Shown: piece after piece, positions 8,893-9,147 of the stretch
Position numbering within the stretch: the stretch's first letter is position 1
Layout: each line of letters starts with the position of its first letter
Assembly: GCF_003790525.1 (NCBI RefSeq)
Contig: NZ_CP033635.1
DNA length: 64,000 nucleotides
Source of the DNA: Escherichia coli
Lineage (GTDB): Bacteria > Pseudomonadota > Gammaproteobacteria > Enterobacterales > Enterobacteriaceae
Direction: 5' to 3' (one strand)
Position numbers and translations under genes: made by a program
The notes under the pieces: generated by a model
Told to the model about the DNA's origin: nothing
Seen by the model: the letters and a program-made list of their open reading frames with translations, nothing else
The model's database searches: none

Positions 8893-9147
8893 TTAAAGCT
8901 GACCGACAGACTTTCTTAACCTGGTAATATCTCTCTTAGGTGACTCTCCAAACATCCGCGAATATTCCCGACAGAAATGGGATAAGCTTTCGTAACCGAC
9001 AGCATAGGCTGCAGTGGTGACATCGTAATGTTCATTCAGCATCAGTCGCCTGGCTTCATTGAGGCGTAGCCATTTCTGATACCGGAGTGGACTCATTCCC
9101 GCAAGCTGTCTGAAGTGTTGATGGAAAGAGGGGGTGTTCATTTGCAC
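8893..9147 (-). pseudogene. yneL: AraC-family regulator C-terminal fragment (second HTH only)
   Basis: 84-codon ORF starting at GTG with the AraC HTH signature (YESLSHFCREYSRMFGESP); an in-frame TGA lies immediately upstream so the N-terminal domain is missing. Confidence 0.65.

Follow-up and report, generated by a model that had tools for sequence, protein, structure and literature searches.

Our analysis indicates that positions 8893–9159 (minus strand) of the window, the whole 64,000-nucleotide stretch of E. coli DNA analysed here, are very probably the SMS-3-5 allele of the already known E. coli pseudogene yneL, a non-functional remnant of an AraC-family gene. The sequence agrees at every position (100% identity) with that of E. 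coli SMS-3-5 (NC_010498.1), in which RefSeq/PGAP annotates 8893–9159 as a pseudogene ("missing N-terminus"), and the equivalent in K-12 MG1655, located between ydeT and hipA, is yneL (b1506), also flagged as a pseudogene. The remnant is homologous to a longer functional gene whose start codon, promoter and essential domains it has lost, and it bears the marks of relaxed selection, judged from a small sample, as well as of further independent disruptions within the species. The preliminary description had read the locus as either a decaying regulator of the adjacent fimbrial operon or a miniature DNA-binding protein; its "decaying" is in line with the truncated gene already annotated in K-12 and in this strain. 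To these annotations we add the YqhC-like parentage, a deletion junction placed to within ~2 nt, and the origin of the upstream stop codon in foreign DNA. The features of the region are as follows.

8717–8746, minus strand: F9 fimbrial promoter (TAGTCA-18 nt-CATAAT), 147 nt downstream of the remnant stop codon.
8893–9147, minus strand: 84-codon GTG ORF, from the ORF list of the window.
8893–9159, minus strand: AraC-derived remnant (yneL orthologue), codons 217–304 of 304 plus the stop codon, supported by the PGAP pseudogene, nucleotide identity and HTH_18.
9160–9161: deletion junction, where two G's of uncertain origin separate the antisense hydrolase DNA from AraC codon 217, from side-by-side sequences.
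9169–9171, minus strand: in-frame TGA, inside hydrolase-derived DNA, not AraC DNA.
9161–9214, plus strand: internal scrap of an alpha/beta-hydrolase gene, aa 226–243 of 365 (tblastn, 83% identity, E=7e-8; blastn to loci L009 and L011).
9229–9300, plus strand: DUF2255 scrap with ribosome-binding site, start codon and ~17 codons, carrying an internal deletion (blastn to L009:3668–3753).
9310–9336: 27-nt block GTGCGCATAATGTATATTATGTTAAAT, 100% match to L009:401–427 and L023:415–441 (Klebsiella and Enterobacter loci, respectively).
9414–9474, minus strand: final ~60 nt of hipA, spared by a strain-specific deletion of hipBA (junction 9474/9475).
9481–9526, minus strand: HipB operators O1 and O2 (TATCC-N8-GGATA, twice), from comparison with the K-12 sequence.

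The 84-codon ORF runs from the GTG at 9147 to a TAA at 8895–8893, and an alternative ATG at 9141, two codons past the GTG, would give an 82-aa product. The ORF product matches Pfam HTH_18 (E=1.2e-21, profile positions 6–76 of 80) and Pfam HTH_AraC (E=1.3e-8, residues 43–71), so its homology to the AraC family is far beyond chance; its PDB matches are likewise AraC-type DNA-binding domains (3mn2, 3oio and 2k9s). The AraC-family C-terminal helix-turn-helix (HTH) recognised in the preliminary description is therefore real. Its statement that only the second HTH is encoded is nearly right: in the helix register taken from the match to the NCBIfam MarA model, helices 3–7 are complete, and the fragment contains the whole of HTH2 and, in addition, the recognition helix of HTH1. 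Specifically, residues 204–244 of the intact protein form its first HTH_AraC repeat, and the AraC-derived DNA begins at residue 217 of the 304-aa parent, in the middle of helix 2, so that half of HTH1 is lost. The fragment thus has the DNA-binding-domain homology of the AraC/XylS family, without the complete two-HTH domain.

The N-terminal domain, which had been described as gone, is indeed absent. A tblastn search of the whole 64-kb window with full-length relatives, of the kind proposed for finding upstream remnants, gave no match to the AraC_N domain (PF06719), either upstream of the fragment or elsewhere; the match is confined to residues ~219 to the end of the relatives (the last ~88 residues), at window positions 9159–8902. 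The ~150-aa N-terminal domain that characterises the AraC_N subfamily is accordingly found neither in the fragment nor in the rest of the window, and the fragment, judged by its homologies, stems from the YqhC-like AraC_N subfamily without being a functional member of it. An in-frame TGA does lie upstream, at 9171–9169, though not "immediately" so: seven codons (RVRLANR) separate it from the GTG.

To identify the parent gene, a longer Klebsiella fragment served as the query of an exhaustive protein search, which supplied the full-length relatives; the word-indexed protein search had returned short or partial proteins only. The relatives are 300–326 aa long, match the query over their C-terminal ~125 residues, and consist of AraC_N (PF06719) followed by HTH_18. 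An intact 304-aa copy is present in 94 of 5,426 complete E. coli genomes, and the intact gene is also present in Enterobacter. From 9159/9160 onwards, the remnant is 89.6% identical at the nucleotide level to the intact gene of E. coli M1 and 85.6% identical to the Klebsiella gene; the intact relatives that carry AraC_N show 88–90% nucleotide identity to the fragment. E. coli PD23 carries both forms, with just 480 nt between the remnant and an intact copy upstream of it.

The intact relatives keep consistent company. The E. coli M1 copy resides on an island beside tRNA-Arg and intS, divergent from an Fe-alcohol-dehydrogenase pseudogene and with an alpha/beta hydrolase close by. In Enterobacter sp. 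MGH 24 and E. vonholyi, the intact gene adjoins the hydrolase, and the E. vonholyi neighbourhood also has an alcohol dehydrogenase and a DUF2255 gene. An oxidoreductase/hydrolase partnership is thus seen in E. coli M1, E. vonholyi and Enterobacter MGH 24, while the window holds scraps of it only. Across the E. coli M1, Enterobacter and Klebsiella loci, the neighbours of the intact relatives are an alpha/beta hydrolase, an Fe-alcohol dehydrogenase and a DUF2255 gene, and no fimbrial genes lie beside them. Because the M1 protein shares the architecture of YqhC (31% identity) and its dehydrogenase neighbour is 38% identical to YqhD, the parent was a regulator of YqhC type that belonged to a small oxidoreductase/hydrolase cluster and did not serve fimbriae.

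This parentage bears directly on the proposal that the fragment was once dedicated to regulating the neighbouring F9 (ydeQRST/fml) fimbrial operon and has since decayed. The genes on the 3′ side of the remnant are indeed the F9 chaperone-usher fimbrial genes, and the remnant stop codon lies on the same strand as the F9 promoter, 147 nt from its −35 element; moreover, some fimbrial operons have AraC-type activators. However, homology to the intact loci ends 4 nt past the remnant stop codon, and the adjacency to F9 is therefore a secondary junction; the hydrolase and DUF2255 scraps that mark the original cluster lie on the other, upstream side. The best NCBIfam matches of the fragment are RhaS, FtrA, AndR and RclR, with no fimbrial-regulator family among its NCBIfam matches, and neither the fimbrial linkage nor the closest similarity expected of a fimbrial activator of the Rns/CfaD/AggR kind is found. 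In addition, a study that reports F9 fimbriae as specific to E. coli and under H-NS control makes no mention of an AraC factor (PMC3966885). The F9 promoter in the window matches the 5′-RACE-mapped promoter of CFT073, located 251 nt upstream of the start of the major-subunit gene (PMC3966885). The fimbrial reading is thus largely refuted, and we give it hardly any credence. We note separately that, in this strain, an IS3-family element at ~1858–3086 interrupts the F9 minor-subunit gene ydeR, so the neighbouring fimbrial operon is itself damaged.

Side-by-side sequences define where the AraC homology breaks off. The junction reads GAAGAGTCA-GG-CTGGCAAAC, with hydrolase DNA on the first side and AraC DNA on the second, and it is identical in all eight of the long alleles examined. 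Window positions 9215–9162 are 92.6% identical to positions 4301–4354 of the Klebsiella locus L009, which lie inside the hydrolase gene, and so the TGA did not arise by nonsense mutation within the regulator gene; it belongs to antisense hydrolase DNA brought in by the deletion. A weak alignment had allowed the TGA to be read as an AraC Leu codon altered by mutation, a reading that the same 92.6% identity removes. Further upstream, the DUF2255 scrap is recognisable by two tblastn segments (MFWSPEVIT and DDRKIASHH), and the Klebsiella counterpart of the 27-nt block lies ~3 kb further along. The hydrolase, DUF2255 and 27-nt pieces occur in the same order and orientation as in L009; a deletion therefore fused hydrolase DNA to AraC codon 217. 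A scan of species representatives for the exact 27-nt pattern returned four loci and no other Escherichia species; the pattern is too strict for dating the deletion.

These observations suggest the following history. The parent was a regulator of ~304 aa with an AraC_N sensing domain, encoded in a small detoxification-type cluster with DUF2255, alpha/beta-hydrolase and YqhD-like Fe-alcohol-dehydrogenase genes. Several deletions, probably in a common ancestor of the E. coli strains examined, reduced ~6 kb of this cluster to ~450 bp, one of them joining the interior of the hydrolase gene, in antisense orientation, to AraC codon 217. With that deletion went the promoter and start codon, all of AraC_N, and helices 1–2 of the DNA-binding domain. 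The 84-codon ORF is open only as the surviving 3′ end of the gene, which in this lineage has yet to acquire a stop codon, and the GTG start and the upstream TGA are accidents of the junction. The junction common to the eight long alleles points to a single, old event.

The distribution of the locus among E. coli genomes is that of a decaying sequence. Some match to 8893–9171 is present in 4,266 of 5,426 genomes and absent from ~1,160 (~21%). At most 1,280 genomes have a match with at least 80% query coverage, and some of these hits are intact island copies. The shorter, K-12-type allele accounts for 3,066 of the 5,426 genomes (~56%). In this allele, an unrelated sequence of 110 nt takes the place of the hydrolase scrap and of the initial ~57 nt of AraC DNA, and a 1-nt deletion in HTH2 was found in all five K-12-type alleles examined. 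The 84-codon frame is intact in about one-fifth of E. coli genomes, including distant lineages (O157-like strains and phylogroup F). The 110-nt replacement (K-12 locus L006:4544–4653, in place of window positions ~9103–9225) is single-copy, contains a hairpin, GCAGTGTCTGTCGCATAGACACTGC, and has no Rfam match.

Sequence variation is consistent with a loss of constraint. Among 12 E. coli alleles, 15 variable sites are non-synonymous and 7 synonymous (22 sites; the statistics ignore phylogeny). By comparison, the corresponding counts are 4:10 for fixed differences from intact copies (Fisher p=0.039 versus the allele variation) and 10:20 for differences among intact copies (Fisher p=0.024 versus the allele variation). 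Pairwise dN/dS is 0.07–0.19 against intact genes and 0.34–0.40 between remnant alleles; a dN/dS of ~0.3–0.6 for the remnant suggests relaxed selection, though it stays below 1. From these small numbers, uncorrected for phylogeny, constraint on the gene appears to have lasted until roughly when it was truncated, with drift thereafter. We also observed that codons 39 (9043–9045) and 63 (8971–8973) changed repeatedly and independently, Leu39 to Pro, Gln and Thr, and Ser63 to Cys and Arg, and that these changes are more clustered than expected from 22 variable sites.

The same data weigh on the second possibility raised in the preliminary description, namely that strains with the long allele make an 84-aa product (or an 82-aa product from the ATG at 9141). 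With one HTH complete, such a product would act either by binding DNA or by interfering with a related AraC_N regulator. SMS-3-5, strain 300444, O157-like strains, PD23 and others have an open frame, HTH2 and helices 3–7 are complete in the product, and similar 82-aa ORFs occur in K. pneumoniae ATCC 13883. However, neither the GTG at 9147 nor the ATG at 9141 has an AGGAGG-like Shine-Dalgarno sequence within the preceding 20 nt, and a consensus scan of the minus strand of 9148–9700 revealed no promoter-like site. Helices 1–2 of the first three-helix bundle are missing, whereas stand-alone AraC domains such as MarA retain both HTHs. Furthermore, the 15:7 ratio indicates relaxed constraint, the conserved Leu39 is among the residues changed repeatedly, and most E. 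coli genomes carry the frameshifted shorter allele or no remnant at all. K-12 yneL, annotated as a pseudogene, is reported to give a microarray signal under many conditions (PMC9308461), and the DNA may therefore be transcribed, possibly by read-through, but the K-12 allele behind that signal cannot encode this protein. We therefore consider a functional miniature protein highly improbable.

On its upstream side, the remnant faces a locus that has itself been cut down. The strain-specific hipBA deletion joins DNA just past operator O2 to the end of hipA, and the surviving operators are O1 at 9526–9509 and O2 at 9498–9481. We considered whether the hipBA promoter, freed of HipB, could drive the remnant and discarded the idea: the −35 and −10 elements and operators O3 and O4 are deleted, and only O1 and O2 are left. 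Beyond the operators lies an ECSE_1600-family autotransporter gene (a yneO/ydeK homologue, 9554–14538), which is frameshifted near its C-terminus, its true end (...GVKYSW*) lying in another frame at ~9603–9660. A strong hairpin follows this gene at 9554–9585 (−18.9 kcal/mol, z=−2.8).

The DNA might instead be kept for a non-coding reason, either as the fixed edge of a recombination hotspot or as a spacer or insulator that shields the F9 promoter from upstream transcription. Three gene sets abut the same point (~9316–9319, ATTTAAC of the 27-mer) in different strains: hipBA with the autotransporter; a carboxymuconolactone-decarboxylase/quinol-monooxygenase/aldo-keto-reductase cluster; and an IS-rich island with the intact AraC_N regulator and an integrase. 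This point may thus be a recombination hotspot. Independent deletions have also left 3′ stubs of the gene elsewhere. Specifically, the stub of K. pneumoniae ATCC 13883 (L024:1070–1318) results from the loss of 5.3 kb, the junction falling at codon 223; that of a Klebsiella-like genome (L013:6284–6465) is placed at codon 271; and a third is found in E. vonholyi (L023:7570–7675). In one of these cases, no more than 19 nt separate the junction from that of E. coli. In E. vonholyi and in E. coli PD23, the stub lies directly downstream of an intact copy. Independent truncation at nearby positions could hint at something besides random decay. However, roughly one E. coli genome in five has no remnant at all, neither inverted repeats nor an att-like structure came to light, a search of the window region and the K-12 allele against Rfam at a permissive threshold gave no match, and deletions from a variable region that halt before the next useful gene would give the same picture without selection on the stub. 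A non-coding role is thus quite unlikely. Taken more broadly, the idea that the stub marks a recombination or deletion hotspot, or that the long allele makes a single-HTH peptide modulating related AraC_N regulators, is in our judgement unlikely as well. A mobile cassette was also considered, and a search for inverted repeats flanking the intact PD23 gene yielded nothing convincing.

The reading of 8893–9159 as a decaying yneL allele tidies the annotation and opens no new question. It also does away with the tempting but mistaken idea that this AraC fragment belongs with the F9 fimbrial genes. In addition, yneL is still counted as an uncharacterised transcription factor in lists (PMC4797297, PMC9308461), the former placing YneL among the uncharacterised AraC-family factors, and no regulon is to be expected of it.

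Among known systems, the closest is K-12 yneL (b1506) itself. It occupies the same site, on the downstream side of hipA and upstream of ydeT/F9, carries the same AraC C-terminal homology, and is 96% identical to the SMS-3-5 allele over the 210 nt that the two have in common. The SMS-3-5 allele is the older and longer of the two, with 267 nt of AraC DNA and an open frame, whereas the K-12 allele has the 110-nt replacement at its start and the 1-nt deletion in HTH2. The surroundings differ too, since hipBA, present at the K-12 locus, is deleted in SMS-3-5.

YqhC, the activator of the aldehyde reductase gene yqhD (PMC8262776), provides the functional reference for the intact parent. The E. coli M1 protein (304 aa) has the same AraC_N and HTH architecture, its identity to YqhC extends over 255 aa (E=6e-39), and the M1 gene is likewise divergent from the gene of a YqhD-like Fe-alcohol dehydrogenase. 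YqhC is nevertheless a distant paralogue of the M1-type parent, not its orthologue. Of the 304 residues, the window fragment retains just the final 88, with no AraC_N domain, and so it cannot sense or activate as YqhC does.

Finally, proteins of the MarA/SoxS type resemble the remnant in their small size and in their homology across helices 3–7, and the window itself contains marR and marA (36061–36899; marA at 36510–36899), the latter encoding the 129-aa MarA. The remnant starts at about MarA residue 31 in the NCBIfam MarA register, lacks helix 1 and most of helix 2, and is without translation signals, whereas MarA has all seven helices and both HTH motifs and, as a genuine small stand-alone AraC-type protein, offers a useful contrast to the remnant.
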